This document shows, one piece after another, positions 1 to 62,179 of a stretch of DNA of 64,000 bases. The stretch's first letter is position 1. Every line of letters begins with the position of its first letter. The translations under genes and the position numbers were made by a program. Source of the stretch: Eledone cirrhosa (Eukaryota); assembly GCA_964016885.1 (NCBI GenBank), contig OZ024742.1, forward strand, positions 117,862,001 through 117,926,000. Reading direction: 5' to 3'. The notes below the pieces were generated by a model. It searched no databases, was not told the DNA's origin, and saw only the letters and a program-made list of their open reading frames with translations.

Positions 1-2072
1 GCCAGTTCGACTTCGTCGAGGCCCAAAGCTTCTCCGAGTGCGTCATCGCACTTGCCCACCACTAATCCTCTATAGAACTCGAGAGTGGAAGTTCCACTGA
101 TCCCATTGCCCGCTTGGTAGAGGGCAGTGAGTGCCTGGCAACATTCCAGGTGCCGGTCACCCAGTCTCGGTCTCTTCTTAACCCAGGACTGCAGTTCAGT
201 CAAAGAAATGGGCGGAAAGGCCCGTCTGATAAACGGTGACCACACCTGTTCACCGTTGAGGCAGAATATCTGGAGATGTCGCAGCCTCAACGCATGTCTG
301 CGCATCATTAGCCACGGCATGCCCAGCCTTCCGCGTAGAGGGTGCTGGCAGCAGATGGACCGCCTCACCAACGGAACTTGTCCACTCCACAAGAATTTGA
401 AGAGGAGCCGTTCCAACTTGACGAGGCGCGGACGGGGGCAAGGCACGACGGCCAGGCGGTAGTAGATGACAGACGCGATGTACGCATTCGCCACCTCCGC
501 GCGACCTTTCAGTGATAGCTCCCTCCCAGCCCATTGGGTGAGCCTGGCTACTCTGCTCGTTACCTCGTCCCAATTCTTTTCCACCTGGAGGTCTGGTCCG
601 AACCAAACCCCGAGCAACTTTACCGGTCCGTCCGTCCAGCGCCCTACGACGCTGTTGGACGGCATGGGCTTGCCTCTCCAGATTCCGAGCTGCAAGCCCA
701 CCGACGTTTCCGGTTTAAGTTTGGCTCCTGTCAACCTTTCATATTCCTTCAATAAGGTGCCGACCACCTCAATTTCTGAGGTGTTCGACACCATTACGGT
801 GATGTCGTCCGCGTAAGCCAACACCGCCCTTCCACGTCACGGTTCGAGCGGGATTCCCTGCAACAGCTCCAGCTTCCGTAGTAAAGGCTCGAGAGTCAAT
901 ACGTATAGAAGGGTAGAGAGAGGGCACCCTTGACGGACCGATCGGGAGAGCCGAAATGGTCCCGAGAGGTGGCTATTAACCTTGACCACCAAGCGTGTGC
1001 CGTTGTGCATTGCAGAGATCCAGCTTCTGAAGACAGGGCGGAAGCCAGCTGCTTTGAGGACAAACTCCAGATACCGATGGTCGACCCTATCGAATGCTTT
1101 TGATTGATCTAAATTGATCAGAGCCCCACCGAAGCCAGGTTAACACCCTACCCTCTCTATGATGTATGGCATGAGGTGGAGATTGTCGTGTATGGACCTG
1201 GCTGGGATTGCACAAGTTTGCGCCTCCCCAACCAAATCCTCGACGACAAGCGCCAATCTCTTTGCTAACACCTTGGCCAAAATCTTAAACTCTGTGTTGA
1301 GCAGAGTTATGGGCCTGAAGTTGTCTAATGTATCCCTCTTGTTCTCGTCTTTCCTTATCAGCGTCATCACTCCCTTGCTAACAGAACTGGGAATACTCCC
1401 ATTCTGCTGCCAGTTGCAGTAGAGTGCTTCGAGGAGATCGGAGAACAAGTCTGGCATATTTACGTAAAGCTCGTAGGGCCGGCCATCCAAACCGGGTGAC
1501 TTGCGCCTCATGCAGACGACAAGGGCGTCCTGAATTTCGGCTGAAGTAATCGGCCTTTCGCAGCGCTCAGCGTCGACCGTCGAGATGCGCGGCAAGCCGT
1601 CAAGGTAGGGACTGAAATCCGCTACTCTCTCTGACTCGCCACTCTCCCCGAACAACCGATCAAAGTGCTAGCGAAAGGCCTCACACATCCGCTTGGAATC
1701 GCTTATCTTGTGTCCGTCTCGGTTCGCCAAAGACCGAATTGTGGTTTTATTACCACGCTGCGCCTCCGCCACGCGGGCCCATCGGACATCTTTGGTTCCT
1801 TCGTTTCTCAACGCACGCGCCTTAGCTCTGACAATGAAACCTTCGTGTTTCGCATTGAAGAAATGGTCTAATGCCATTCTCGCCGCTAGAACGCCAGTTG
1901 CAATCCACTACAAATAGCCTCGTCTAACTCATCTACCAGCTCCCCCTCCTTTCCATTTTTCTCTGACGCTAGTTCTTTGTTGAATTCTATCGAAGTTACT
2001 CTAATCTCTCTTTTGAGAGCTCCCCACCATCTGTTGTCGATGATCCCCCCTGTCAACTTTAGCTTAACTAAA
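1..2072 (-). mobile_element. Tx1/L1-clade non-LTR retrotransposon, ORF2 reverse transcriptase part (disrupted; continues past window start)
   Basis: Minus-strand ORFs carry KSPGLDG and NFRPITLLNTEFKILAK; DQSKAFDRV, RQGCPLS and YADD are readable on the minus strand; collinear with the copy at 26997-29785. Confidence 0.95.
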
Positions 2073-3238
2073 ACGAAAACAAATAAAACCACACCAACAA
2101 AATGTTAAAAATTTCGTGCTTGTCAGAAGGGCTAACGATAAACTGATGGCCCTCTTAGCACGAAGCGAGGACATTCAAACAGAGGGGGAGACTTTTGAAA
2201 TGAGCACATTTTGCGTGCCAGAAGATTTGCTACTGGTCCGAATGCCACTCAATTCCTTCAAAGAAATTCGAGAGAGCTTTCCCCAAGACGTGAGAACCCC
2301 GAATGTGAAACCCACATCGAGACTTTTAAAGGGGTTCCCAAAAGAAACCCCACCAACCATGGAGGTCGAACCACCCGACCTTCACAAGACCCCGAGAGGT
2401 AAGTAAACCTTCCCTCTCTCTCTTAGCTTACCAACATGGCCATATTAAGAGTAGGAAGTTTAAATGTTCGCGGCCTGGTGTCACCCTGGAAGCAGGGTCG
2501 CCTGCTCAACGACCTCAGGTCGCTGGAAATGGATGTGATTGCCATCAGCGAGACCAGAATTTCCGACACGCGCGCACTAGCCCCCATTTTCGACGACGAT
2601 CAGATCTTCGTATCTGTTAGCAGGCCGGGAATGGGGGTGAGGTGGCAGTGCTGTTTAGGAAAGGACTGGATCTCGAGGTAAGGTCGATCTTCCGGGACCC
2701 GGATGGTAAGTTGGTGGTCTTGGATGTGAGCAGTAGCGAAATGGTGCCTTTTGACTGCTGGCCGTCTACGCCCCTACAGGGGCCGGACGACCGGACTTCT
2801 TTAGGCGCCTGGAGACCTTTCTGGGTACGTCTCGCCCTTTACTGTTAGCGGGGCACTGGAATGGCATCTTAGACGCACGCTGGGATTGTGTGGGAGTAGC
2901 CGATAGGAGCGGGGGGTGCAAAAGCCTCAAGCACCTACTCAGCCAGTTCCAACTGTCTGACAGGTATCGACTAGATTTCCCCAATGTGCCAGTATGGACA
3001 TGGACCAACCGAATGGGGTCATCTAGATCGTATATAGACAGGATCTTCATTAGGAAAATAGATAGAAATAGATTGGGCTGCCCACTTTTTAAAACGGTCG
3101 CCTATTCAGATCACAAATTTGTGATCTGTACGGTCGACATAGATAAAACGCGTAGGTTAGGACCGGGTTACTGGAAGCTGAACATGTCATTTCCGGCACG
3201 TAAGGCTTACAGGGACCGAGTCAACAATTTAGTTAAGC
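2073..3238 (+). mobile_element. Inverted 5' segment of the same Tx1-like element: ORF1 end plus APE endonuclease start (ATG 2436)
   Basis: GSLNVRGL, ISETR, SRSYIDRIF and YSDH APE motifs with frameshifts; ends at tttagttaagc (3228-3238), the same point at which the minus-strand part begins (2062-2072). Confidence 0.9.
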
Positions 3239-3239
3239 A

Positions 3240-3289
<50 letters not shown>

Positions 3290-3290
<1 letters not shown>

Positions 3291-4482
3291 CAGTAGGAAT
3301 GCCATAAGTGCAGTAAATTCCCGAGCTGTGTCTATTATTAGGTACAGTACGGGAATTCTGAGATGGAATGCTGCTGAACAAAAAGAAATGGATAGGAAGA
3401 CTAGGAAGCTATTGACTATCTACAACATGTTCCACAAGAGGAGTGATGTCGATAGACTCTACTTAAGGAGATCTGAAGGTGGAAGAGGTCTTATCAGCAT
3501 AGAGGACTGTGTTCAGATGGAGAAAAACAACCTACACAAATACGTGACTGATAGTAAGGAGCCAATGCTCAGAATTGTACTGAAGGAGGGGACAATAGGC
3601 CAGGGGATGTCCAAGGAGGAAATAACATCAAGGAGAAAGAGCAGCCTTCAGGAAAAATACCTTCATAGTACCTTCTTTGAGAAAACTGAATTTAGAGACC
3701 CACAGACATGGAACTGGTTGAAAAGAGGAGACCTTAAAAAGGCTACAGAAGGAATGTTAATGACTGCGCAGGAGCAGACCCTCAAAACGAAGTGGTTGAA
3801 ACACCATATTTACAAGGAGGAGGCTAGCCCACTGTGCAGGATCTGTGGAGAGTGAGAGGAGACTGAGGCTCACATTGAATCCGAGTGTAAACACCTAGCC
3901 CAGACTCACTATAAAGGCTGGAGACATGATGTGATGGGCAGGGTGATCCACTGGCACCTATGCAAAGTAAACAATTTACCACATTCTGAGAAGTGGTATG
4001 AGCATAAGCCAGAGGCGGTGATAGAAAACGATCAAGTGAAGGTGCTGTGGGATTTTAGGATACAGACGGACAAGAAACTGGAACACAATAGACCTGACCT
4101 GGTGGTTGTGGACAAAGAAAAAAGATCGTGCCTGATTGTGGATGTGGCCTGCCCATTCGACACGAAAGTGCAAGAGAAGGAGAAGGAGAAAATTAACCGA
4201 TACCAGGACTTAAAGTGGGAGGTAAAAAGGATTTGGAACTGCCATGAAGTCAAAGTGATCCCGATTGTCATAGGCGCACTAGGGACTATCTCAAAAAGTT
4301 TCCAGGGATGGTTAAAGAAAATTGGCCCCTTCACGCTTTTTGGAACGCTTCAAAAGGCATGCTTGCTGGGAACAGCAAGAACCCTCCGATACGTCCTAAA
4401 TATCTGAGGCTGCAGGTAGTGGCTTGATATTCATTTCAACAAACTTTCCAGTTAACTAACATCAATGACTGAGACTCAAAGA

Positions 4483-4483
<1 letters not shown>
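3290..4483 (+). mobile_element. 5'-truncated R4/Dong-like RLE non-LTR retrotransposon in (AAT)n
   Basis: GGRGL, CRIC..ET..HI...C zinc knuckle, RHD and NRPD...VDVACP..D restriction-like endonuclease motifs; (AAT)n on both sides (3239-3289, 4484-4525). Confidence 0.9.
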
Positions 4484-4528
<45 letters not shown>

Positions 4529-4603
4529 ACTATTAATAATTATTAATTAATGCAATCGTGCAATGCCTGTGCGTGACAAATATTTTTAAAGTGAGGAAAG
4601 ACT

Positions 4604-5660
4604 GTGCATTGAGCCAATCCCACTCTCTGAGCGACAGTAGCTATAACCCGAAAAGAAGAAAAGATTAACATCATCGGTAACTACTGAGCCGCAGGTTTTA
4701 TGTTGGAGTTAACTCAGTTTCCTGAGATGCCTAGAAGAATGCCCTGACAAGGGCTAGGGGTTCTTCACTCCCAGTGGTTTAATTGCGCGATCGGGCATTC
4801 GGCCCGATTATTTCTATGCCCCCGCGCAAAAAAAGAAAAAAAAAAAACCCTCACTTATTGACACTTAAACCTACGACATACACACACGCGCACACACGCA
4901 CATACATACGCGCGCACACAGCAACACTCATACATACAAACAAACACACACACGCTACTCACACACACACATATATATATTACCGTCATTACTGATACAA
5001 GATTACAAGATTATGTCAACTGTTGACTTTCAAGAGTTCGTATAGTTGAAGCCGTTCGTATTACAGTTCAGTATTATTATAATTGCTTTACAGCATAGAG
5101 CTATGGCTCTCCACGCTCTGAGCTCAAATCCCGCCGAGGCCAACCTTGCCTTTCATCCCCACGGAGTCAACAAAAGAGAGTACCAGTAATGTGCTGAGTC
5201 AGTCATTGGTGATGGTGATGGCGGTGGTGGTGGTGGCAGTTGATGTTGTTGTTGTGTTGTGTGCGTGTGTGTGTGTGTTTTATTATTTTGCGGGGTTTTT
5301 TTTTCTTTTTTTTCTTTTTTTATCGTTTGATGCCGCTGTTGTTGTAAATGTTCATTTCAATTCATTCTGAAGCTGTTGTTGCTGTAAACATTAGTGCCGG
5401 TGTTGTTGTTGTAGATGTTGGGGTTGAAGTCTAGTCGTTTGACTGAGTGATGTATATACACACATATACATACATATATATATATACACACACACATTCA
5501 ACACAGAGTAGAGAGTTTGACAACAGGTCGGTGACTTTAGGCTAGATAGAGTAATGACATGTGTAAATGTAAATGTGATGGTGGCGCGAGAGTGTAGACG
5601 TTATTGTGGTGGTGGGGGGCAGTGAGATGTATCTAGTTCATTTGTCCGTTTTCTTCTCTT
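4604..5660. repeat. ~1.05 kb composite interspersed repeat, copy 1
   Basis: Collinear with 42016-43070 over its whole length; contains an RTE 5'UTR-like motif (minus), CA tracts and a Meta-type SINE fragment (~5090-5197). Confidence 0.85.
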
Positions 5661-5671
5661 TATACATACAT

Positions 5672-6085
5672 GGTGGCTACCAACTCGTTTTCGAGTACGG
5701 CCACTACTTTATCTCCATGTAGGAGAACCCCCACCGATGCGCTGAACGAGTGTGACCTTTTAATCCAGCCAGCGACTTGAAAACTCTGGTACAAACACTA
5801 CACTTGTGACAATTATTGACACATAGTGCTGGGCCCATGGTACCATGTGACGACAAGTGCAGAGAGATCACCAGATATAAAGCAATGCCTGTGCCATGAA
5901 GCTTTTATAGTGAGCAAAGGCACTGCACAAAGCCAGTCCCACTCTCTTAACCAAGATGATATTTACCAAAAAGAAGAACAAGTCAACATCATTGGATACC
6001 ATCAGAGTTGCAGGTATTATATCAGAGTTTTCCTTCTCCTAGAATTCTGCCTTGACAAAGGCTAAGGGGTCATCTCTCCCGGTGA
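5672..6085 (-). mobile_element. 5'-truncated copy of a ~605 bp non-coding RTE-derived retroposon with (ATGT)n tail
   Basis: Near-identical to 6107-6520; flanked by the direct repeat tttatacatacat (5659-5671, 6086-6098). Confidence 0.8.
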
Positions 6086-6106
6086 TTTATACATACATAC
6101 ATACAT

Positions 6107-6710
6107 GGTGGCTGCCAACTCGTTTTCGAGTACGGCCACTACTTTATATCCATGTAGGAGAACCCCTATCGATGCGCTGAACGAGTGTGACTTTTTAGTC
6201 CAGCTAGCGACTTGAAAACTCTGGTACAAACACCTCATTTGTGACAATTATTGACATATAGTGCTGGGCCCATGGTACCATGTGACAAGTGCAGAGAGAT
6301 CTCCAGATATAAAGCAATGTCTGTGCCGTGAAGCTTTTATAGTGAGCAAAGGCACTGCACAAAGCCAGTCCCACTCTCTTAACCAAGATGATATATACCA
6401 AAAAGAAGAACAAGTCAACATCATTGGATAGCATCAGAGTTGCAGGTGTTATATCAGAGTTTTCCTTCTCCTAGAATTCTGCCTTGACAAAGGCTAAGGG
6501 GTCATCTCTCCAGGTGATTTTGGATGGCCATTGACTCTTAAGAGCTCGTTTGCCCTTTGACAGGTTTTGTTTTTAGTCCTGCAGGATGTCCAAAGTCACC
6601 CTCCTCACCAAGAAACCTTGGTGGGGTTGCCAGTTTAGTCGCCAACGACCCGACCATGAGACAGGTTGTACTGGGATACATGTTACCAGTAGCACCAACT
6701 GGTGACCTGA
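6107..6710 (-). mobile_element. Full-length ~605 bp non-coding RTE-derived retroposon flanked by (ACAT)n
   Basis: Same ends as the copy at 40463-41070; minus strand has the RTE 5'UTR-like motif GGCAGAATTCTAGGAGAAGGAAAACTCTG and a 3' hairpin ACTCGAAAACGAGT before the ATGT tail. Confidence 0.8.
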
Positions 6711-6758
6711 CATACATACATACATACATACATACATACATACATACATACATACATA

Positions 6759-9700
6759 GACAGTCAACGCGATCATTCGCATATTTTGGCGTGGGAGACT
6801 ATTTATTAAATTTAAGATTAATACTATCTCCGACAGTAATGCCACAACTACAGCCAGGTTGAATAACTGGCTATTCTTCTAACTATACCTTCTGAAGACA
6901 CCTTTTATTCGAATTCGTAGAGATATCTGACTAAATACATAATTCATTTTACAAGAATTTGCTACAAACAGCATGGCTGAACACAACATCAACAAAAAAA
7001 AAAAAATTAAGGTAGTACCGAAGACAAATAACAAGGAAGGTAATCAAACTTTATTCAGTTGTAGCTACAGAAGAAACCGAAATTATAAATCGCATTTCTC
7101 TTGGAGTTGCGAACTTAATAATGATTTATTTAATTGTTATAAAATGGCAAAAAAACAATCCCTCCATTGGCTATATGAATAGAATGAAGCTACACTGGGA
7201 CGAAATGCACCCAGAGCTAAATTATTTCACAGCGAAACAATTACGCCAACAAGCAACGTTTGTTGAACGTAAAAATAAGATAAATATTATTAATTGTAAG
7301 TTCCCCACAACAAACATGGAATCAACAACACGTGCTACAGATAGCCATGCTACTAGACTTCCTAGCAGCCAGGTCGAACAGCGTCTTGAAACAACTCTGC
7401 CTGTAAGAAACTTGATACCACCTGTACCATCTAAGTCTACCTCGAATGCTGAGGAAAACACTATCGATAATAATAATAATCGAAGAAATTTGACACCACG
7501 TGTACCATCCGAGTCTACCTCGACTGTTGTGGAAAATACTATCGATAATGATAATCAAAAGTATAAACAATTGAAAATTTCCCTCAACGAAATCTTCCAG
7601 AGAGAAATTAACTCATGTATACATATCTCTCTTGCTGAACGTATTAAAACAACAATGTTTAATAAAAAAACCAAATAATGAAATATTACGTGTTATTGAC
7701 GAACATTTTGGCAAATCAACGCCTGTTTATATGCCCTAGCAACGACAGTGAAGCATTATCTTGGTGATAGCAGAGATATTAACAAGAACAGAACACCACC
7801 AAAAATACCATCATATATAACTAAAATAGAAAAAAAGATTGCTGACCTACGAAAAAACATAGGATAGGTGACAATGCTCCTTACATGCAAACAAACACAA
7901 AAAAACCTCACTCCTCACCAACAAAGAGTGAAAAATAAAATAGAGACCGTGTTTGGTAACAGTAGAACCAGAACTCTCCAATATAAGTTGATCACCCTCA
8001 AACAAGAATTGAGAGCTGTTAGCGAAAAACGCCGATACCTGAAGAAGGTAGATGAGAGAAAAGTGCTTAATAAAAGATTCAGACGAAACCAAACATCAGT
8101 CTATAGAGATATGAAGGGCAAAATAATAAGTGTCACTGAGGCGCCATCCCAGAAAGACATAGATTCTTTTTGGAGCAAAATATGGGGTGAAAAGAAGAGT
8201 TTCAACCAAGATGAAGTGTGGCTAAGAGAAATCCGAAAGAACTATTGCTCCTACACTACAACAAAAACATAGGAAATAAGTGAGACTGTGATAGGAAAAC
8301 TCCAAGATAAGAAAACACCAGGAAGAGACATGATTATCGGCTACTGGTACAAAAAACTGATATTCTATCGGAGGTATCTTACTGAACTCTACCAACAAGT
8401 TCTTAAGGGAGATACACTTATACCAGAATGGTTGACATTAACACAAACATTACTGGTCCCCAAGAACAAAGATACCCACTTGGCAAAAAACTACCGACCC
8501 ATTGCATGCCAGAACCTGATGTATAAGATGTATACAGCCTGCCTGAACCTATTCCTCCAAGATCACTGTGAAAATAATAACATCATCACAGATGAACAAG
8601 CAGCTGGAAAGAAAGGGGTTTGGCGATGTGCTGAACAACTCCTAATCAACAAAACTGCGATGTCGGAGGTGCGACAACTTAGGAGGAATATGACTACAGT
8701 CTGGCTGGACTACAGGAAACCTTTCGATTCTGTTCTGTTCCCCACTCTTGGATGATAGAGGCCCTCAAACTTGCTAAAGTCCCAGACATTATTGTCAGAG
8801 CCATAGAGAGGCTGTCTTATTCTTGGGCTACTATCCTAAGGTTAAAAACAGAGAAGGAGGACTCTATTTTCACTGATAAAATAAAATATTGCAGGGAGAC
8901 AGTCTCTCTGTGATATTATTCATCTTGTCATTAAGCCCCTTGTCTTTTCTGCTCAACAAATGTGAGGGATACATCATTGGCTCACAGGAGGACAGAAATA
9001 TGAACCTAACCCATAATTTCTTTGTGGACGATCTGAAACTCTATGCCAAGAACATGGATGGGATGAAGAAAAATCTTGACCTGGTTACAACGTTCTCAAA
9101 GGATATAGGAATGGAGATTGGCCAAGACAAATGCTCATACATGACTGTAAAGCGGGGAAAAACAACAATCCAATCTAGCAACATCGTCATCAATGGCCTA
9201 ACTGTTTCACCGATATCTGATGAGGACTGCTACAGATACCTGGGGATAGATGAGAACATATCCTATAATGGTATCTGTAATAAAGAACGCGCAACCAGGG
9301 AATACTACACCCGATTAAGAAAGATCTGGTCATCGGAACTCTCTGCGCAAAACAAACAGTGGCTCACAATGTGTTTGCTGTGCCTGTCCTAACACCAACG
9401 TTTGGAATACTCAATTGGACGATAGACGAAATCCGAGCAGTTGATGTTGGAAGTCGAAAAATACTGAACAACACCGGAAACTTCATGCCTATCAGTAAAA
9501 AAGCATGCATGGATATGTTGCCAGGAAGCTCCAGAGTGAGAGTAATATAGATAAGGAAAGTAGTCTATCTTGGACCAACAACCGCTATATTGGCTCCCAC
9601 TATGAAGAATACGCTTTTGCACTCCAGGAACAGGAGATTAACACGAAATACCTGATTCACAAAAGAGATAGGGATGCAGGCAAAACACCTAGATGTGATA

Positions 9701-10496
9701 ACAAGTGCAGAACTAACATCGAGGATATCACTCATGTCATCAGCAGCTGTCAAAAGATGTCATCGCGGTAATATCTACTTATGAGGCATCATGTAGTGGC
9801 CAAAACACTGTACAATGCAGTTCGTAAAAAAGATAGCCCCGATAATAAACACGTTAATAGCTTCAACAATGTGGAAGACATCCATGTACATAATATGAAA
9901 GAGTACTGGTGGAATGTTCCAGTAAAAACCCCAATAAAATGCAGGCATAACAGACCAGATATTATGATATGGGACAGGGAGAAGAAAGCATGCACAGTAG
10001 TGGAAATTAGCTGCCCAGCAGATGCCAATATAATATCAAAGACTAGCGAAAAGGAGAATATTTATGCACAACTGATGAGAAATCTGCAGATAATCCACCC
10101 TGATTACACCTTCAGATTTATGCCTGTGATTATTGGGGCACTGGGATATGTTAGTAACTGCCTCAATACAAATCTTGAGAAGCTAGGCTTCACAGGAACA
10201 GAAAGAACACAACTAGTTAGGAAATTACAAGTACAATCCATTAATGGAAGAGTAAAAATATGTAAAACATTCCAAAAATTGTGCATCTAATAACTGCATA
10301 TACACATGTACACATGCACACATACAACTCAAAACATCCACATCCACACATACAATAACATCTATATCTACACATGCATGCATACATATGTACCTAGTTG
10401 ATGTTGTGTAAATTCCAATGAGAGAGTCTTGTGTCTATGTTAGAAACCGACTCTCTCTCTATTGGTAAAACTTTGTGAAATTATAAAACCAGAAGA
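6759..10496 (+). mobile_element. Near full-length, disrupted R4/Dong-like RLE retrotransposon in (ACAT)n
   Basis: N-terminal W..E.N..L..CY/GYMNRM..HW domain, NYRPIACQN, WLDYRKPFDSV, QGDSLS, FFVDD, RHH and NRPD...VEISCP; stops and frameshifts; (ACAT)n at 6711-6758 and acatacat at the 3' end. Confidence 0.92.
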
Positions 10497-10504
10497 ACAT
10501 ACAT

Positions 10505-10895
10505 ATGAAAACGTGTTCTGTTGTGGAGATCAGCTGCCCACTTGATGTAAACGTTGTCAGAAAAATACAGGAGAAGGAGGACATCTACGGACCATTGATG
10601 ACATGTTTACAAATACAGTATCCAAGATACACCTTTAGCTTCATACCCATCATTATTGGAGCTACGGGTTATATACGAACCCGCTTGGACCAAAGTATGA
10701 CTGAACTTGGATTTGCGGACAAAGAGAGCAGCTCCCTAATTCATAGTCTACAAATGGCTGCGATAGCTGGCACCTTCTAAATTTGCAAAACATTCTTGCG
10801 ATTCAAGGGATTACAATTTCTTTTCTTTTACAACCTTGCCACCAGGAAGGTGGCCGGTCAAAAAAATATACTCGAAATTAAGGGAAAGAGATAAC
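10505..10895 (+). mobile_element. 3' fragment of a second, related RLE retrotransposon family
   Basis: VVEISCPLD...KEDIY...PIIIGATG...ICKTF, similar to but diverged from the preceding element; ends in an ACAT-like tract. Confidence 0.8.
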
Positions 10896-11077
10896 ATACT
10901 TACACACATACATATACATACGTATGTGTGTAAAGATGTGCTTTCGTGCCTCTATACTCCAACTCAACATTGCATGAAATAGAATATATATTTCATGTTT
11001 ATTGGCAGATGACTTCGCATAATATTTGATATCAACTTGTAAAATATCATATTTTCAGAAACATTATTTATTTATCT

Positions 11078-11755: not shown

Positions 11756-11802
<47 letters not shown>

Positions 11803-12018
11803 GCTACTGTACGTCTGTATACATATATGTATGTACGTATACATACATACTTACATTTAAGTAAGTGCCATACTAAGAGTGAGAAATGAAATTTCGTTTT
11901 TCGTTTTCATTTTTTTCAACTTATTGTTTTCAGTATGCCTGACCGATTTAACTCACTCAATATGCAAATTAGGCTGCTCAGCCGTTAATTTTCATAAGGA
12001 AAGTATATACTTTCGAAC

Positions 12019-12105
12019 GTTCAACTATCTGGCAGATGGGTAAACGGTGCTGATGATAGCTAACAAGCTTGAAACTAGTACATCGTTCCTGTGCCAGTGT
12101 TGAAC
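12019..12105 (+). ncRNA. Type I hammerhead ribozyme, unit 1
   Basis: Stem I AACGGUG/CAUCGUU, core CUGAUGA 12050-12056, stem II AGCU/AGCU, GAAA 12071-12074, palindromic minimal stem III ACUAGU, site GUA (12080); distal helices CUGGCA/UGCCAG and GUUCAAC/GUUGAAC. Confidence 0.85.
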
Positions 12106-12486
12106 AAAAAGGTGACGTGGTTGCCTTAACACCGTATGGCATAAATTCAGGCTGTTCAGTTTGTTGACAAACGAACAAAGCAAGCGCTATAATAAGCGTC
12201 TGCTAAACTGATGCGTGCATATATGTATGTGTACCTGCATGTATGTATATATATATATGTATATATACATGCTACTGTACGTCTGTATACATATATGTAT
12301 GTACGTATACATACATACTTACATTTAAGTAAGTGCCATACTAAGAGTGAGAAATGAAATTTCGTTTTTCGTTTTCATTTTTTTCAACTTATCGTTTTCG
12401 GTATGCCTGACCGATTTAACTCACTCAATATGCAAATTAGGCTGCTCAGCCGTTAATTTTCATAAGGAAAGTATATACTTTCGAAC

Positions 12487-12573
12487 GTTCAACTATCTGG
12501 CAGATGGGTAAACGGTGCTGATGATAGCTAACAAGCTTGAAACTAGTACATCGTTCCTGTGTCAGTGTTGAAC
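12487..12573 (+). ncRNA. Type I hammerhead ribozyme, unit 2
   Basis: Same motif 468 nt downstream (CUGAUGA 12518-12524, GUA at 12548); one C>U change turns a G-C into a G-U pair. Confidence 0.85.
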
Positions 12574-12788
12574 AAAAAGGTGACGTGGTTGCCTTAACAC
12601 CGTATGGCATAAATTCAGGCTGTTCAGTTTGTTGACAAACGAACAAAGGAAGCGCTATAATAAGCGTCTGCTAAACTGATGCGTGCATATATGTATGTGT
12701 ACCTGCATGTATGTATATATATATATATATATACATGCTACTGTACGTCTGTATACATATATGTATGTACGTATACATACATACTTAC

Positions 12789-12852
<64 letters not shown>

Positions 12853-24749: not shown

Positions 24750-25239
24750 ATCTGGTGTTTAGGAGCTGATGGTTTTGCTGGTGATCTAGCGTATTTCGGT
24801 TAAACATGTTCCTATATTTATAGCCAGCAAATCTAGCTGTCGTCTGTTCTACAGTGTGGATGTAATTCACTTCGCGCAGAAGTTTTGTTCAAATTTATTG
24901 CGGAAATTTTGTGAGTTCAAATTTAATTTTGATACTATTGTGTAGCTTGACCCCCCGTCTGAACTGTCAGACGGTGGGTCAGCCCATCTTTACCCCTCCT
25001 AGAGGTGAAAAACCTGTTTTTTTAAATTTTGTGGCAAAAAAAAAAAAATTTTTCAATCGTCTGACAGAAATGTTAAACGAAGCGAACGAAAACAGTGGTG
25101 GGGGACAGCGGTAAGAGTTGTAAGCTCGCACGCTTTAGTCCCCCCTTCCTTCCCAACTAACGTCATAGAGAAGGAAGGAAAAAACAAAATAAAAACAGAC
25201 GAATCTGCGGAGAAAAATGACGAAAACACAAATCTGGAC

Positions 25240-26963
25240 ATGGATTCCAACAACGAAAAAAAAAAATTTGAAAAATTGCATGACAATATTAATACCACAA
25301 ACAAAGACATAACAAACACAAAAATAACATTTGAAAACAACATAACAGAAAGCAAAGCAGACGACAGAGTCAACAAGATTTCATTTGCACAAAAAACAAA
25401 GAAATCTTTGACATATATACCCGAAAATATTTCAGATGTGGCACGAAGAATCACAGACGCCAAACAATACATAAGTGAAGGAGAGAATGGTATTTTATCG
25501 GTTAAAATGCCTCAAGAACTCACCAAAGACATTGAAAGTCGAACGGTCGTGTTCCGCACCATTAACAACACTTCAAAAAAACCTGAACAGCCAACTCAGG
25601 CAGATATCAAAACAGTACTCACAGAAGTACTTAATGAAACCACTTTCATAAGAAAAGACAGACTGTATGGAAGCCTAGCAATTATCATGAAGAACGAATC
25701 GGCGGCAAAAAAATGTGCTTTGTCACCGATTCGTTCGAAAATTTTTACCTTTTATCCATCTTATATGGGTAAAAGAACTCAACGCATATGGCTGGATGCA
25801 ATGATGCCAGATGTGGACTACTGCTGGCTCATAGCTGGCTTCATCGATCCAGTGAATGACAACGTGATTTCCATTGGGAAAACCACAGGCAATGCGTTCA
25901 GTGGAACAGGTATAGAGCTGGTAGTGCAAATGAAGCCTGAACGCATCGCCCAAATACCCGACAGAATCCTATTAGAGGGCCACGGGTATATAAACATTAG
26001 CGTGGAGGGGAGAAGGCCATCCTGTCATATCTGTGCAGGCAGAGGGCACCTGAAGGCCGCTTGTCCCCAACACAACAAAATGAAAACCCTGCTACCAACA
26101 CCAGCTCCACCACCACAACAGATAAACAAACAACAAAACTCAGTCCCACCCAACCCGTCCCTCAGTAAAACTACACCACCACCACAACACAAACAGTCAC
26201 AACACATTACCCCAAAACAAAATACAGGCCCACCCAACCCCTCACTCAATAAAACAACACAACCACCGCAGACACAACACACAACACAGTCTAACATAGT
26301 GACATCCATCTCCCCCACAAAGAAAACCAACACGGAAACATTACCAGCAAACATACCTCTTCCCTCCAACACTGAAGATAACCCAACGAATTCGGAGGAA
26401 GAAACGGAGTCCTTCAGACAGATTAAAAGGAAAAAAAGAAAACATATGCAAAACACACACGGCCAAACAACCCCCACCCAAATGTCAACACAATCCAACA
26501 AAACAGAAAACACCTCTCCAGCAACAAACAAAACCAAACCTGCCCCTCCCCTCTTCGAAACACTCACACCATCCGAAAAAAGACATTACACTATACTTAC
26601 ATCAACAGAAACAATAATAAATTAAATGAACTCATATATAATAATCCTTTGGTACAAACCGAAGGTGTAAACTTTGTTTCTTCAGAAAACTACCCACATT
26701 TAAAATTAATAAAGATCCCAATGAACCTCTACCAAAAACTAAAAAAGGATTTTAAGGAGGACGTAGGACCACCCTCTGTCAAACCCATAAACCGCGTCCT
26801 ACTAAAAAGTTTTCCCCCTCCCCTTCCCCTCCTCAACACAACTCCAAACACCCCAACCCCACCACACACTGACGACCCCACACCACCACAAGACACCCCT
26901 TCACCCAACACCCCCGACCCCATGGAAGTCGTGCGACCCGAACCCCGGGAAGCGGAAAGGTAG
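25240..26963 (+). pseudogene. Tx1-like ORF1 (gag-like, CCHC knuckle), interrupted near 26625
   Basis: 461-aa ORF with CHICAGRGHLKAAC (CX2CX4HX4C) and a P/T/Q-rich tail; the 26649-26963 part resembles the ORF1 end at 2116-2406. Confidence 0.85.
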
Positions 26964-26996
26964 GTCTCTACACTTTCCTTTGGCTCTGCCGCCCAC

Positions 26997-29785
26997 ATGG
27001 ATGTGTTAAGAGTAGGATGTTTGAATGCACGTGGCCTGGGCTCGACTTGGAAGCAAGCAAAGCTTCTAAATGACCTCAGGTCATGTGGTATAAATGTAAT
27101 GGTTATCTGTGAGACTCGGATCAGCGTCGTGCGGCAACTGGCCCCTACCTTCGATGACTTTGAGGTGCATGCATCTCTCTGTCAACCTGGAGGTGGGGGT
27201 GGGGTTGTCGTACTGCTGCAAAAACACATGGGTCTTGCCGTACAGGTTGTGCACTCGGACCCGGGGGGTCGTTTGTTGGTGCTAGACGTTGGCAGTAGTG
27301 AAGGTGCGGCCTTAAGACTGGTCGCCGTCTACTCCCCTTTCGGAGCTGAACAGCCCGACTTCTTCCAGCGTTTAGAGACTTTTCTGGGAACGTCGCGTTC
27401 CCTGCTTCTAGCGGGGGATTGGAATGACATCCTAGATGCACGTTTGGACTATGCAGGAGCATGTCCTAATAGAGGGGGGTGTAACAGCCTCAAGGGGTTA
27501 CTCGACCGTTTTAACTTAGTCGATAGATATCGACTAGATTTTCCAACTGTGCCAACCTGGACTTGGAGAAACCACAGTGGTCAATCTAGATCGTACTTAG
27601 ATAGATTCTTAGTTATAAGTAAGGATAGGGACATATTAAGCTGTCCAGAAATGCGCACGGTTGGCTACACGGATCACAAATTAGTGACCTGCGTAGTCAA
27701 TCTCGAGAAAACACATAAACAGGGTCCCGGTTACTGGAAACTTAATTTGTCTTTACCGGCAAAAGAGACTTACAGAAACCGGATTAGCAGATTAGTTAAG
27801 GAGAGGTTGACGGGTGCAATCGTCAACAACCGATGGTGGGCATCTCTCAAAAGAGAGATTAAAACAGAATCAATAAGTTATAGCAAGATGTTAGCTGCCG
27901 ATAGGAATAGAAACGAGAAAGAATTAACAGGTAAATTAGAAGAGGCAATCAAGAGCGAAGATGTGGCCAGAGTGCTGGCATCGAGGACGGCCTGAACCAG
28001 TTTTTCGATGCAAAGCACGAAGGCTGCGTCATTCGAAGTAAAATACGTGCTCTAGGTAATGAGGGGGCAAAAGCCGTTGGCTGGGCCCGCGTGACAGAAG
28101 CTAAGAGTGGAAATCGATCCACCATCCGGTCGTTGCAAGACGAAGATGGACGGGTGATCCGGGAGCCTAAGCAGATGTGCGAGGCCTTTCAAAGGCACTT
28201 TGCCCGATTGTTCGGGAGAGGCGAGGGTCCGGGCGGGGACGTGGATTTCGGTCCATACCTCGACGGCCTGCCGCGTCTCTCGAGCGAAGAGGCAGAGTCC
28301 TGCGAGACCAATCTCGGCTGATGAGATCGGAGATGCGCTGAGCCAATGCAGCAGACGCAAATCTCCAGGTCTCGATGGTATACCTTACGAACTTTATTTA
28401 GCAATGCCGGTCTTCTTCTCCGAACTCCTCGAAGCGGTCTACTGCAATTGGCAGCAGAACGGGAGAATTCCTTGTTCTGTAGCCAAGGGCGTAGTCACGC
28501 TGGTGAGGAAGGATGAGAACAAGGGAGATAGTATAAATAATTTTCGGCCCATAACACTGCTAAACACAGAGTTAAAGATTTTGGCCAAGGTGTTAGCAAA
28601 GAGGTTGGCGCTTGTCGTGGGTAGCCTGGTGGGAGATGCGCAGACATGTGCTATCCCATCCAGGTCCATTCACGATAACCTCCACCTCATGCGATACATC
28701 ATAGAGAGGGTTGGCAACAAACCCGGCTTCGGTGGGGCCCTGATCAACTTGGATCAGTCTAAGGCCTTCGATAGGGTCGACCATGGTTACCTGGATGCGG
28801 TGCTAACGGCGGCTGGGTTCGGTCCTGTTTTCAGAGCCTGGATCACTGCCTTACATAGCAACCACATCTGTTCTAGGATCAAGGTGAACGGCTACCTTTC
28901 GAAGCCGTTCGAAATCACACGATCCATTCGACAGGGGTGCCCTCTCTCCTCCCTTCTGTACGTATTGACTCTCGAGCCTTTACTGAGGAAGTTGGAGTTG
29001 TTGCAGGGTATCCCCCTGGAACCAGGATTGAGCAAAGCGGTGTCGGCCTACGCTGATGACGTAACAGTAGTGGTATCGTAACAGTAGTGGTACCGATCGA
29101 GGCGATCGGTACCTTACTGGAGGATTACGAAAGGTTGTCAGGAGCGAAACTGAACCGGGAAAAATCCATCGGGCTGCAACTCGGAACGTGGAGAAGCAGA
29201 CCGATGCCTCCCGACGGTGTCGTCGGACACTGGACGGAGGGCCCGGTAAAGTTGCTTGGGGTCTGGTTTGGACCGGACCTCCAGGTGGAAAAGAACTGGA
29301 ACGAGGTTACGAACAAGGTGTTTGCACTAACCCAGAAATGGGCCAAGTGTAAGCTGCCCCTAAAAGGCCGGGCGGAGGTGGCGAACATTTACATAGCGTC
29401 CGTCACTTACTACCGCCTGACTGTCGTGCCTTGCCCTAAGGAAACACTCACCACCATGGAACGCATGCTCTTCCAATTTCTTTGGAAGAAGCGCCCTCCT
29501 ATGGTGAGAAGATCCATCTGCTGCCAACAACCTTCGAAAGGAGGGCTGGGGATGCCGTGGTTGATGATGCGTAGGCACGCATTAAGGCTACGGCACCTAC
29601 AGGTATTCCTCACTGGTCAACCGGTGTGGGCTCCGTTCGTGAAACGAGCCTTTCCGAAACTCGTCTCGCTCACCGAGCTACAGTCCTGGGTCAAGCAAAG
29701 ATCCGGAAAACTGGGAGACTGGCACACTGAGTGTGCTCAGGCGCTCAGGGCTCTCTGGCAAGCGGGCCAGGCCATCGGTGGAGAA
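26997..29785 (+). pseudogene. Tx1-like ORF2 (APE endonuclease plus RT), frameshifted
   Basis: GCLNARGL, LAGDWND, YLDRF, TDH; SPGLDG, FRPITLLN, DQSKAFDRV, RQGCPLS, YADD. Confidence 0.95.
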
Positions 29786-30400
29786 TCTGGAACTAGGGTC
29801 TTGCTAAGGGGAGTAGAAGATCTTTTCCTTAAAGCCACTGTTGGCTTAGGTGTTATTATAGTTGGCTAAGGTGTTATTGGGGGCTACTCTATCAAATATA
29901 CTCTTATTTGAAGAAAGGCTTGAGATTCTCTTATTTATGGTGTTACTAGATTCCCGAAAATTATAGACGCGTCACCTTGACTTCTGCTGTATCTAAGTTT
30001 CTCACTGGCTTTGGGACAAGGCTCACGTGTATGTGAGTTTGGGTCGAAGATGATATTTAGGAAACTGACACCAGTGAGGTTGTTGGCTACGGTAATATTT
30101 TACAGGCTATTGAAGATGGTTTAAGAAGTTTCATAAAAGTATCCAAGTCATGGCCGCTTTTACGTCTTGTTAGGACCAGACTATCGTCACAATATAGACC
30201 AATACTAACACCTGGGAATTTACTTTTTTGTGCCTAAAATATATAACCCCATCAAATTTCAGACATTGGTGCTGTCGAATGAATCCATTGATGCATTAAA
30301 CATTCCGCGGCATCCGACGTTTTTAATCAGGTTGATTCGCTATTGAAGAAGAGGTTTTTTTCTTGAATGAAAGACTATTTTGTGTAGAAATATGTTCCTT
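29786..30400 (-). mobile_element. Degenerate Penelope-like element RT fragment
   Basis: Minus strand gives FNASMDSFDST (cf. FDV.MGS.DGA), IGLYCDDSL (cf. GLYRDDGL) and KRISSLSSNKSIF. Confidence 0.75.
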
Positions 30401-34120: not shown

Positions 34121-35903
34121 CTGCATCGCACTTATACCATTAAGTAAAATGCTCAATGAAACAAAACATGGATATAAAATCTATGACAAAACCATTAATC
34201 ACTTGTTCTACATGGATGACCTGAAACTATTTGCAAAAAATGATGAACAATTGCAAGGGCTATTATCCACTGTGGAGCAGTTCAGTGATGACATTAAAAT
34301 GGAGTTTGGACTAGATAAATGCGCCAAAGCAACGTTCACCAGAGGAAAGCTGCTGAAGAGTTCAGACATTAATTTTGATCGGGGGAACGTGATAAGAGAA
34401 CTTGATCAAGAAAAAACTTACAAATATCTAGGTGTTTGTGAAGGAGACGGAATCAAGCACTCGACAATGAGGGAAAGGATAAGGAAGGAATGTTACCGCA
34501 GAGTAAGAGCAATCTTAAGAACGGAATTGAATGCAAGGAATAGGATCGATGCCATAAACACGCTTGCCATACCAGTAGTAACCTACAGTTACAATGTCAT
34601 CAACTGGTCAAGCACAGAGATCCGTAGGCTCTATACAAAAATTCGAAAATTCTTAACTATGCACAGAATGCATCACCCTAAGGCAGATATAGATTGAATA
34701 TATCTCCCTAGGAAAGAAGGAGGACGTGGGTTAGTCCAGTTAGACATTGCGTTGAAAACTGCAACAATTGGATTATCTACATATCTAAGGGAATCACATG
34801 ATTGGATGATCAAACTCGTTTTGAAACACGAAAGCATCAAAAGATCATATTCCATTACAAAAGATGCACAAAGATACAGTAATGGACTACAAATTTCAGA
34901 AGTCCCATTTACTGCTGAAATGGAAAACACAGAAAAAGCAAAGCAGGTAAAAGTAACTGCAAAGAAAGAACTGCTCCAGAAACTGGCTAAGAAATGGCAA
35001 GAAAAGCCTCTGTATGGAAAATACCCAGAGCGAGCTAACAATCCTGATGTTGACAAAACTTTAACCCATCAGTGGTTGGCATCCTCTGGACTGAAATCGG
35101 AGACTGAAGGACTGATTATATCAGCACAAGATCAGTGTCTGCCAACAAAAAATTACCAAGCCAACATAATAAAAAATGGATGCAGCCCATTATGCCGTGT
35201 ATGCAAAAAACAACCAGAGACCATTGACCATATAATTTCAATGTGCAGTCCTATAGCTCCAACCGAATACCTAAACAGGCATGACAGAGCTGCACAATAC
35301 ATACATTGGATAATGTGTAAGCATTTTGACCTGCCCCATCAAAAGAATTGGTGGGAGCATCAACCACCTCCCATACTTGAAAAAGATCACATCTCAATCT
35401 TGTGGAACTTTAGCATCCAAACAGACCGAAAAATAGATGCAAATAGACCTGATATAATATTGAAGGACTTTCAAAAGAAGGTATGCCTGCTAATTGATAT
35501 GTCTGTTCCAATAGACAAGAATGTATCTATAAAAACATTTGAAAAATTGAGCAAGTATAAGGACCTGGAGATAAAAATTGGAAAAATGTGGAAATTGAGA
35601 ACTAAAACAATACCAGTGGTTGTAGGCGCTCTGGGAATGATACCTAAGGGGTCTAATGATTACTTATCGCAAATCCCAGGAAACCCGCGTATAGGAGAAA
35701 TACAAAAGATAGTACTAATGGGAACTGCCCATATACTAAGGAAGATTCTGTCAATATAAGTACATCACAAGTCTAAACACTAAAGATGCATGTGTGAGTA
35801 TGTATGTTCTTTCTTGAACATGGCGGACCTTGTTGTCTCTTGAGGTCACTGGTTGTGACTTCGTGATAACTCGTATGAACATAAAGCAAGATAAATGCAA
35901 CTG
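34121..35903 (+). mobile_element. 5'-truncated R4/Dong-like RLE retrotransposon with (TAA)n tail
   Basis: HLFYMDDLK, YKYLG, GGRGL, CRVC...ETIDHIISMC, RHD and NRPD...IDMSVP; only one stop (34695); taataa tail at 35904. Confidence 0.93.
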
Positions 35904-40462: not shown

Positions 40463-41070
40463 AGTGGCTGCCAACCCGTTTTCGAGTACGGCCACTACTT
40501 TATATCCATGTAGGAGAACCCCTACCGATGCGCTGAACGAGTGTGACTTTTTAGTCCAGCCAGCGACTTGAAAACTCTAGTACAAACACTACACTTGTGA
40601 CAATTATTGACACATAGTGCTGGGCCCATGGTAAAATGTGACGACATGTGCAGAGAGATCTCCAGATATAAAGCAATGCCTGTGCCGTGAAGCTTTTATA
40701 GTAAGCAAAGGCACTGCACAAAGCCAGTCCCACTCTCTTAACCAAGATGATATTTACCAAAAAGAAGAACAAGTCAACATCATTGGATACCATCAGAGTT
40801 GCAGGTGTTATATCAGAGTTTTCCTTCTCCTAGAATTCTGCCTTGACAAAGGCTAAGGGGTCATCTCTCCCGGTGATTTTGGATGGCCATTGACTCTTAA
40901 GAGCTCGTTTGCCCTTTGACAGGTTTTGTTTTTAGTCCTGCAGGATGTCCAAAGTCACCCTCCTTACCCCCAAAACCTTGGTGGGGTTGCCAGTTTAGTC
41001 GCCAACGACCCGACCGTGAGACATGTTGTACTGGGATACATGTTACCAGTAGCACCAACTGGTGACCTGA
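40463..41070 (-). mobile_element. Third copy of the ~605 bp RTE-derived retroposon, in (ACAT)n
   Basis: Collinear with 6107-6710 with the same termini. Confidence 0.85.
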
Positions 41071-41547: not shown

Positions 41548-42015
41548 CTACCAGGGGCAGGTTGGTACATGACGACGGTTTTCTTGGGACTAACAGTCAA
41601 TCCTAGGGCAGTGCAAGCATCAGAAAATGCATTCAAAATGTGCTGCATATCACTCTCTGCGTGCGCTACAAGATCGCAATCATCTGCATACAAAAGGTCT
41701 CTTATGATTGATGTAAATACTTTTGTTTTTGCAGCAAAGCGCTTGATGTTAAATATGCTGCCTGAGGTTCGATATTGGATGATAAACACCATGCTCGAAA
41801 TTCCTGAATACAATATAGAAAACCATTGCAAAGTATATGGCAAACAGGGTCGGTGCTGGAATATCCCCCTGTTTCACTCCATTTTTTACTGATATAGGCT
41901 CCGACATGTTACCTCTGACATTAACCGAAGCCTTCATGTCGTCATGGAAAGACTTAACCAAAGCAAGGAACTTATCAGGGCAACCAAGTTTCTGGAGAAC
42001 CTTCCACAATGCATT
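41548..42015 (-). mobile_element. RTE (BovB-like) RT fragment
   Basis: LWKVLQKLGCPDKF, GVKQGDIPAPTLF and LLYADDCDL. Confidence 0.88.
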
Positions 42016-42365
42016 GTGCACTGAGCCAATCCCACTCTCTGAGCGACAGTAGCTATGACCCGAAAAGAAGAAGAGATCAACATCATCGGTAACTACTGAA
42101 CCGCAGGTTTTATGTCAGAATTAACCCAGTTTCCTGAGATGCCTTCTCCTAGAAGAATGCCCTGAAAAGGGCTAGGGGTTCTTCACTCCCAGTGGTTTAA
42201 GTGCGCGATTATTTCTATGTCCCCGCGCACGAAAAAAAAAGCTCAGTTATTGACACTCATACGTACGACCCCCCCCCCCCTCATACACACTCACTCACAC
42301 ACGCACACATCAACACTCATGCATACAAAGAAACACACACACGCCACTCACTTGCACACGCACAA

Positions 42366-42397
<32 letters not shown>

Positions 42398-43070
42398 TAC
42401 CGTCATTACTGATACACGATTATGTCAACTGTTGACTTTCGAAAGATTCCGTATAATTGAAGCCGTTCGTGTTACTATTCAGTATTATTATAATTGCTTT
42501 ACAGCATAGAGCTATGGCCCTCCACGCTCCGAGCTCAAATCCCGTCGAGGTCAACCATGCCTTTCTTCCCCACGGAGCACCAGTACTGCGATGGGACAAT
42601 CGCTGGCTCCGTACCAAAAGCAGAAAAATTATTATTATTATAGTTGTTGTTTTCTTAAGGCCCGATCGCTGGTGATGGTGATGGTGATGGTGGTGGTGGT
42701 GGATGGTGGCAGTTGATGTTGTTTTTATGTTGTTTTTTTTATCGCTTGATGCCGCAGTTGTTGTAAATGTTCATTTCATGCTGATGCTGTTGGTGTAGAC
42801 ATTGGTGACCGGTGTTGTTGTAGACGCTGGGTTGAAATTTGGTGTTTTGACTGAGTGATATATATATATATACACATACATACATATATATATATATACA
42901 CACACATTCAACACAGCGTAAGGAGTTTGGCAACAGGTCAGTCACCTTAGTCTAGATAGGGTAAAGACTTGTGTAAATGTAAATGTAGTGGTGGGGAGAG
43001 AGTGTAGACGTTATTGTGGTGGTGGGGGGCAGTGAGATGTATTTAGTTCATTTGTCCGTTTTCTCCTCTT
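42016..43070. repeat. ~1.05 kb composite interspersed repeat, copy 2
   Basis: Collinear with 4604-5660. Confidence 0.85.
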
Positions 43071-43327
43071 TTCAAAATTTGAATTTGAATTTTAGCTATG
43101 TTATATTGGGATGTAAGTAAATGTAAAATGTAAAATGTAAATAAAGATTGCTCTGGAAAAATGTATGAAAATATTTGTGTAACTTCCACAACTTCTGTCA
43201 GACTATTTCCCGAGTCTAGTGAGCAAACATTTTGTTTCAGAATACAAAAATTAATCAAAACTTACCCTACGAAAAGACACCGTGTGTTGTCCGATCTATA
43301 AGCTCCCTATATACATACATACACACA

Positions 43328-61928: not shown

Positions 61929-62179
61929 AAATACACACACACATACTCAGACACAGAAATACACACGTACACATCTATATATTATTGCACTGATGTGCAT
62001 ACATGCACAGTTATAAAGAACTCAAAACTAGACAGATATGATTTTGATAGTTTGCCAGATTAAGCAGCGTGAATCGTAATCTTCAAATGTCTCTTCAGGT
62101 TGATTTAAACTACAGGCATACATACATACATACATACATACATACATACATACATACATACATACATACATACATACAT

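Follow-up and report, generated by a model that had tools for sequence, protein, structure and literature searches.

R4/Dong-like LINEs located in (ACAT)n repeats of Eledone cirrhosa belong to a deep branch that probably shares a tetranucleotide target

How does a single kind of tetranucleotide repeat come to hold several retrotransposons side by side, and is that repeat the target of the elements or a product of their insertion? The question is raised by a 64,000-nucleotide stretch of the Eledone cirrhosa genome (GenBank assembly GCA_964016885.1, contig OZ024742.1, positions 117,862,001 to 117,926,000 of the forward strand), hereafter the window. Here, a long interspersed nuclear element (LINE) with a reverse transcriptase (RT) and a restriction-like endonuclease (RLE) is located between ACAT repeats, in a pile with a diverged relative and copies of a non-coding element (Table 1). 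We refer to this LINE as family A, to its relative as family B, to the non-coding element as N, and to two comparison LINEs within TAA repeats elsewhere in the window as T1 and T2. An earlier note, made from the sequence of the window alone, had read A as an R4/Dong-like element with a switched specificity for (ACAT)n. The analysis reported here makes it quite probable that A and B are R4/Dong-like elements positioned in (ACAT)n in a fixed orientation, that they likely insert by cutting the repeat, and that they form part of a deep branch, the members of which likely have a four-letter repeat, ACAT or ACTT, as their common target.

The junctions of these families were tabulated across the genome. 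In each search the 40 best candidates were scored and 30 loci, including the window's own, were fetched; the counts use the other 29. Copies were chosen by internal sequence, and a junction was assigned to a repeat if it held at least 8 nt of that repeat. The candidates per search, which are lower bounds, numbered 1648 for the 5' end of A, 544 for its 3' end, 183 for B, 703 for T2, 2049 for T1 and 3732 for N. Among the A junctions, 18 of the 20 5'-truncations falling inside the fetched locus and 27 of 29 3' ends are in ACAT, and none of either set (0/20 and 0/29) is in TAA. B gave 18/21 truncation junctions and 27/29 3' ends in ACAT, with no case of TAA in a larger count of 56 truncations and 74 3' ends. 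T2, in contrast, is in TAA at 11/13 truncation junctions and 29/29 3' ends and never in ACAT, and T1 is in TAA at 10/12 truncation junctions and 28/29 3' ends. The coexistence of ACAT and TAA families proposed in the earlier note is therefore borne out, with mutually exclusive flanks. The same note had singled out 5' junctions mostly lacking (ACAT)n as the outcome that would speak against its reading, and the tabulation gave the reverse for both A and B.

Full-length A copies gave the same picture, all 26 of their 5' ends being in ACAT (duplicates removed, neighbours found in the flanks included). The sense of the repeat is nearly always that of ACAT: the reverse-sense repeat adjoins none of the A junctions and only one of 56 B truncations. 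As a background, 29 of 2133 30-mers of the window (1.4%) contain an ACAT repeat of 8 nt on the plus strand. (AT)n is present in 97 of the 2133, three times as many, yet it adjoins only 2 of the 20 A truncations. The association of A and B with ACAT thus exceeds chance, and both of their junctions lie in one repeat, on a fixed strand, truncated copies included.

The window copies conform to this pattern. The RT- and RLE-containing LINE, near full-length as described before, directly follows a perfect (ACAT)12, and the 5'-truncated second A copy follows about 15 units. ACAT does flank A on both sides; its 3' end, however, had to be placed at about 10497, the end shared with other copies, so that the ACAT-like stretch upstream of this point is internal 3' untranslated region (UTR). 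Since copies cut at many different points begin after ACAT, the 5' repeat is not a tail, in agreement with the earlier interpretation of it as target. The 5' repeat could also have arisen with no targeting of DNA at all, as the tail of an upstream element joined to A by template switching, by read-through co-transcription or by later deletion between tails. Another element of these families is indeed found just upstream (A, B or N within 300 bp) in 18 of 29 full-length A copies, and head-to-tail A-A, B-A and N-A joins are common. Nevertheless, the other 11 have no A, B, N or T neighbour within 300 bp (the M family described below was outside that library), several solitary copies have unique-looking DNA beyond the tract (L011, L024, L028, L030), and the upstream N copies lie on the opposite strand, so that N cannot share RNA sense with A. 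We regard such an origin as highly unlikely, and retain targeting of the repeat as the explanation of the 5' flanks.

Neighbours are also found downstream of 16 of 29 A 3' ends, and with the upstream neighbours these make the window's pile typical. A, B (the diverged relative that had been noticed) and two N copies are all present in it, as in the four-element pile-up originally described, but the pile has at least five members because a truncated repeat also forms its left flank. The idea of a single pre-existing tract split by insertions is not borne out, since the left flank is a repeat and the right flank is unlike the continuation seen in the paralogues of that repeat. All 14 fetched paralogues of the left flank continue without ACAT at the point equivalent to 5661, and about 11 of the 14 run into ACAT later, either where they themselves end or where they are truncated at a different place. 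Positions 4528–4828 of the left neighbour are 88% identical to a short RTE-tailed element, M, of L323. The left-neighbour repeat as a whole (4528–5661 and 42015–43071 in the window; L308–L321 elsewhere) is composite, with 843 candidates; ACAT terminates its intact copies some 240 bp past the window break, its middle part is shared with N, and an RTE-type hairpin end is likely shared as well. The window paralogue at 42015–43071 was considered as an empty site and rejected.

These observations bear on a further explanation, by which the repeats would be made during insertion: a slippage-prone RT would add an ACAT tail, and the 5' repeat would be an expanded copy of the target site or added sequence. 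RTE LINEs have been reported to create microsatellites at their 3' ends (PMC2887409; this and the other papers are cited from excerpts), and the left-flank repeat lacks ACAT at 5661 in all its paralogues, although it is N and the truncated neighbour that meet at this junction, with A not involved. However, many of the 5' tracts have the length and degeneracy expected of old ones; whatever the length of the truncation, the repeat on either side is that of the family (ACAT for A and B, TAA for T1 and T2); copies land beside one another's tails; and targeting of pre-existing TAA repeats by Dong is published (PMC3812793, PMC7998251). Formation of the repeats during insertion is on balance unlikely, and insertion into ACAT is the preferred reading.

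The open reading frame (ORF) of the window A copy is broken into six segments with 7 stops and the deletion of about 290 bp, and RVT_1 matches are found in its pieces. When 14 A copies, on average 95.9% identical to one another, are combined by majority, the result is a 4.1-kb element with one ORF of 1231 aa, which contains a helical N-terminus, an RT, a CCHC finger and a nuclease of the PD..E..K type (PD-(D/E)xK). Intact-looking copies of 1216 aa and 1141 aa were found for T2 and T1 respectively, and these two families are younger than A. Six branch members from metagenomes (L261–L265 and L270, see below) contain intact ORFs of 1153–1217 aa. The N-terminal 55 residues are predicted to form three helices (predicted local distance difference test score, pLDDT, of about 90), which in the A/B branch align with those of T1 and T2 and include two invariant tryptophans. 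N-terminal zinc fingers were not seen, either as a C2H2/CCHC pattern in the N-terminal alignment or as a Pfam finger match. An R-x-N-R motif precedes the first helix in all branch members with an N-terminus and is absent from T1, T2 and a Bombyx protein of the tree described below; the alignment additionally gives the branch a longer C-terminal helix pair. The predicted model of a full-length branch member (P0004) has R2 structures as its best matches. Architecture and nearest proteins thus support the R4/Dong-like identity assigned earlier.

Some further features of the ends and the linker of these elements were noted. A 78-bp tandem duplication (window 7405–7555) in the N-terminal linker of A varies in copy number between copies. 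A search of A, B and N against Rfam for a head of ribozyme or tRNA type gave no meaningful match. Family B, L263, L264 and L265 share a GGACGTG motif no more than about 30 nt from their 5' end, and A has TCAGT at its start, which B has close to its own. These motifs, which we take to resemble the initiator and downstream promoter elements (Inr/DPE), are possibly an internal Pol II promoter.

The coexistence of ACAT and TAA families in one genome, both with the R4/Dong layout, could suggest that a TAA-targeting Dong family has recently switched to ACAT in this host lineage. The RT sequences make this very improbable. A and B share 59.5% identity in the RT, A/B and T1/T2 only 37–40%, and A is considerably closer (57–65%) to the metagenome members L261–L265 and L269. 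An RT core is present in 233 rows, of which 74 are nearer A (47–65%) and 159 share 35–43%. In trees of 68 and 28 selected rows, the A/B branch is supported at 100/100 on a stem about 0.5 changes per site long, and A/B and T1/T2 are on opposite sides of a long, fully supported branch. The grouping of A, B, T1 and T2, which was tested after the tree had been seen, is rejected by the approximately unbiased (AU) test (p-AU 5e-30). The branch stays intact in a set of 152 rows, 124 of them representatives of 50% clusters, and sits among the nearest of these representatives beside TAA-flanked families and the Bombyx protein (40.5% RT identity). Its sole named protein is from Argonauta hians and is 68% identical to B in the RT.

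Relatives from metagenomes extend the association with tetranucleotide repeats beyond this genome. A scan gave 33 loci, 16 of which were assigned to the branch by score, and 10 of these 16 contigs are bounded by one of two tetranucleotide repeats on at least one side. (ACAT)n bounds L263 and L264 on both sides, whereas (ACTT)n is found at both ends of L265, at the 5' end of L261, L262 and L270, and at the 3' end of L267, L269, L271 and L272. With moderate support, A clusters with ACTT members rather than with B (90/88), and B with the ACAT contigs and the protein of Argonauta (90/86), which suggests at least two changes between ACAT and ACTT within the branch. The separate branch, together with the ACAT or ACTT flanks of the metagenome contigs, argues for an old lineage rather than a local switch. 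The switched specificity relative to the TAA families of this genome, as proposed in the earlier note, is accordingly not upheld. The association of an R4/Dong-like branch with tetranucleotide repeats is real, and targeting of such repeats is likely an old trait of that branch. Contigs of prokaryote genomes yielded only stray TAA-type or distant matches. Dong-like LINE sequence is present on short contigs of bacterial genome records (L294–L300), three of which (L295, L298 and L299) start in (TAA)n; these contigs are likely eukaryotic contamination. Further diverged members of the ACAT branch were seen in the Eledone genome (L047:2159–2684, L042, L237 and L056; 70–80% DNA identity to A/B), and the one in L042 ends near CA/CTA-type repeats. 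The family also occurs on contigs from three further organisms.

Several points weigh against the reading of A and B as members of an old, repeat-cutting branch. The junction sample consists of the 30 best matches per search (out of 183–3732 candidates) and is biased towards window-like copies. The tree rows include no named Dong, Rex6 or nematode R4 element and no outgroup clade. No tetranucleotide array is found in L266, L268, L273, L274, L279 or L280 (three of which are internal fragments), and L269 starts with (ATA)n. The ACTT contigs come from two assemblies and both ACAT contigs from one, with three assemblies overall, and since metagenome contigs likely collapse many copies, each flank label rests on one contig. 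None of the fetched A or B copies has an intact ORF, the longest being 833 aa. The N-terminal region of R4/Dong has been described as a diverged Myb/SANT-like domain (PMC7998251); for the N-terminus of the branch this label found no match in Pfam, in PDB sequences or in fold searches, which were dominated by other helices. Finally, a clean empty site was not found: the flanks of 91 A/B copies gave only element joins or low-complexity matches, and contigs of four runs contained no joint across the pile between unique flanks. This last result also favours formation of the repeats during insertion, and because of it we infer, rather than see, that the repeat was present beforehand.

Position, strand and family-specific repeat are read from the junctions themselves; binding, nicking and priming are carried over from R2 and Dong. 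By analogy with these systems, the protein would bind the repeat through its N-terminal three-helix domain, and the C-terminal restriction-like nuclease would nick the ATGT strand. The freed 3' end would then prime reverse transcription of the element RNA, early stops in which would give truncated copies joined to the upstream ACAT. As repeat would be left on both sides of each insertion, later copies could land beside earlier ones. N, probably copied by an RTE-like LINE, would act from the opposite strand, use both ACAT and looser AT/ACAT repeats, and so enlarge the piles.

The non-coding component of the pile had been described as two retroposons. Both are present, but they are members of one 603-bp family, 95% identical, on the minus strand. 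N has one precise and one variable end, with 14 copies cut at the right-hand end and one at the left, hairpin end. Read on the minus strand, N matches RT-encoding LINEs of L318 and L059 over its final ~110 nt, which align to the 3' end of those LINEs (25 of 30 nt identical at the terminus, E 2e-4). This shared end contains a decayed zinc-finger reading and a terminal hairpin, and is followed by (ATGT)n. The partner LINE carries RVT_1, and no APE (apurinic/apyrimidinic endonuclease) domain was recovered from its copies, all of which are truncated; we tentatively assign it to RTE on motifs that we take to be those of that group. No ends common to N and A, B, T1 or T2 were found. N is thus likely not a passenger of the RLE LINE A, and was likely copied by the RTE-like LINE. 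A reading of N on the plus strand, with recurrent 3' truncation at a T run, was abandoned after the minus-strand end alignments. The flanks of N are in strict ACAT in 14/28 and 15/28 cases, most others being in (AT)n. A second RTE-like partner family is in ATGT at 16/30 3' ends and 11/26 automated 5' calls, a looser and noisier preference. The first RTE-like family (30 copies) was dropped from the junction counts, since all of its copies are within one composite repeat amplified as a unit. As for the head of N, Rfam gave no small-RNA (tRNA) origin on either strand, and for comparison with the 5' UTR of the partner LINE there was no full-length partner among the fetched copies.

The terminal hairpin of N recurs in several diverged short elements and in LINE ends (L032, L037, L059, L102, L148, L318 and L320), and its outer stem has apparent paired changes among them. 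A composite repeat of several kb, with 725 candidates, was also observed (L352–L371); its copies have a common start and contain a truncated RTE-like LINE with ATGT-type flanks and an M element. It is possibly the cargo of a DNA transposon.

Table 1. Features of the pile and of the comparison copies, in window coordinates.
Feature	Positions	Strand	Basis
Left neighbour, piece of another abundant repeat, broken off at 5661	4528–5661	-	repeat search, 843 candidates
ACAT spacer, 10 nt	5662–5671	.	sequence
Element N (non-coding), truncated; 414 nt at the 3' (hairpin) end retained	5672–6088	-	alignment
ACAT spacer between two N copies, 4.5 units (18 nt)	6089–6106	.	repeat listing
Element N (non-coding), full length, 603 bp	6107–6709	-	3732 candidates
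Perfect (ACAT)12, target tract 5' of family A	6710–6758	.	repeat listing
RLE LINE family A, both ends present, ~290 bp internal deletion at 9484	6759–10497	+	copy comparison
Interrupted single ORF of A, with three-helix N-terminus, RT, CCHC finger and PD..E..K-type nuclease	6943–10287	+	
ACAT-like low-complexity stretch, part of the 3' UTR of A, not a tail	10296–10395	+	
Short ACAT spacer (about 7–9 nt) separating A from B	10498–10504	.	
RLE LINE family B, copy truncated at the 5' side to the final 390 bp; element length ~4.2 kb	10505–10894	+	
Degenerate ACAT tract 3' of B	10895–10925	.	
(ACAT)n tract, ~15 units, 5' of the second A copy	62117–62179	.	
Second A copy, 5'-truncated (family position 1438), runs past the window end	62180–64000	+	
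Third N copy, ACAT-type repeats flanking both sides	40464–41069	-	
Comparison family T1, 5'-truncated RLE LINE within (TAA)n	3290–4485	+	
Comparison family T2, 5'-truncated RLE LINE within (TAA)n-type repeats	34121–35903	+	

Other features of the window lie outside the pile. An open frame at 2755–3240, with motifs that are presumably those of APE endonucleases of Tx1-type LINEs, is cut by the (AAT)n tract preceding T1. Long open frames of another LINE-like element occupy 25009–29869 on the plus strand, and a minus-strand piece near the window start (121–1667) is 79% identical to it. A 468-bp unit that contains an inverted repeat occurs 2.2 times in tandem at 11774–12793, its copies being 98% identical.

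How RLE retrotransposons change their targets is a long-standing question that has been studied mostly in R2, and the window places TAA- and ACAT-specific families side by side in one genome. A and L261, with 65% RT identity and ACAT and ACTT flanks respectively, differ by one base in their target, and the intact ORFs in the branch make swaps of the N-terminus and the nuclease domain testable. The elements account in part for the piled, microsatellite-rich character of the repeats in this genome, and ACAT markers in it would often be flanked by them. A broader proposal, which we put forward tentatively and rate at somewhat below an even chance, is that an old, unrecognised R4/Dong subclade across several animal groups targets C(A/T)TA repeats, has changed between ACAT and ACTT at least two times, and has its four-base register set by the R-x-N-R extension; in this genome it would share its target with an opposite-strand RTE-type system, the two together building self-extending piles.

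Among known systems, the closest to A and B are the Dong/R4 elements (Bombyx Dong, DongAg, DongBg, Darwinula Dong1/2; excerpts of PMC7998251 and PMC3812793), which likewise have one ORF with an RT and a C-terminal restriction-like nuclease, a helical N-terminus in which no zinc fingers are seen, and both ends inside a microsatellite in fixed orientation. Dong elements target TAA (PMC3812793), which holds for "most" insect, mollusc and cnidarian members (PMC7998251); A and B are found in (ACAT)n, and their relatives likely in (ACTT)n, so that in the strict sense of (TAA)n insertion neither is a Dong element. A and B also differ in forming a separate deep branch (35–43% RT identity to all other rows), in their N-terminal basic motif and in the longer C-terminal helix pair. 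Dong-R4 and RTE LINEs are abundant in Octopus (PMC13282606, PMC8967140, PMC9115989), with 51 Dong-R4 families in O. vulgaris (PMC13282606), which may include A or B; the passages of these papers on Dong, target and microsatellite, including the supplement of PMC13282606, give no target sequence. No R4/Dong family with an ACAT or ACTT (tetranucleotide) target was found in the literature searched, a scope to which Repbase and Dfam annotations did not belong. As far as that literature goes, a tetranucleotide target would be new for R4/Dong, while microsatellite-targeting RLE LINEs as such are already known. For example, some HERO families and Togen, the latter in (TG)n, are RLE LINEs with microsatellite targets other than TAA (PMC4640811, in part); they belong to other clades (HERO and NeSL-related) with other repeats, and their named members are outside our tree. 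N resembles the published RTE-tailed short interspersed elements (SINEs) and bipartite non-autonomous RTE elements (Bov-A, RTESINE, Ceph-SINE; PMC5786205) in sharing its 3' end with an RTE-like LINE and in its microsatellite end, and differs from them in a head not traced to a tRNA or a LINE 5' UTR and in a 5' side that also adjoins AT/ACAT-type repeats. Finally, WaldoAg1, WaldoAg2 and WaldoFs1 target ACAY repeats, which include ACAT, and are listed with APE-type elements (PMC3812793; R1 clade, from a title cited there). As A and B instead carry an RLE nuclease, the ACAT target that they share with Waldo would be a case of convergence.

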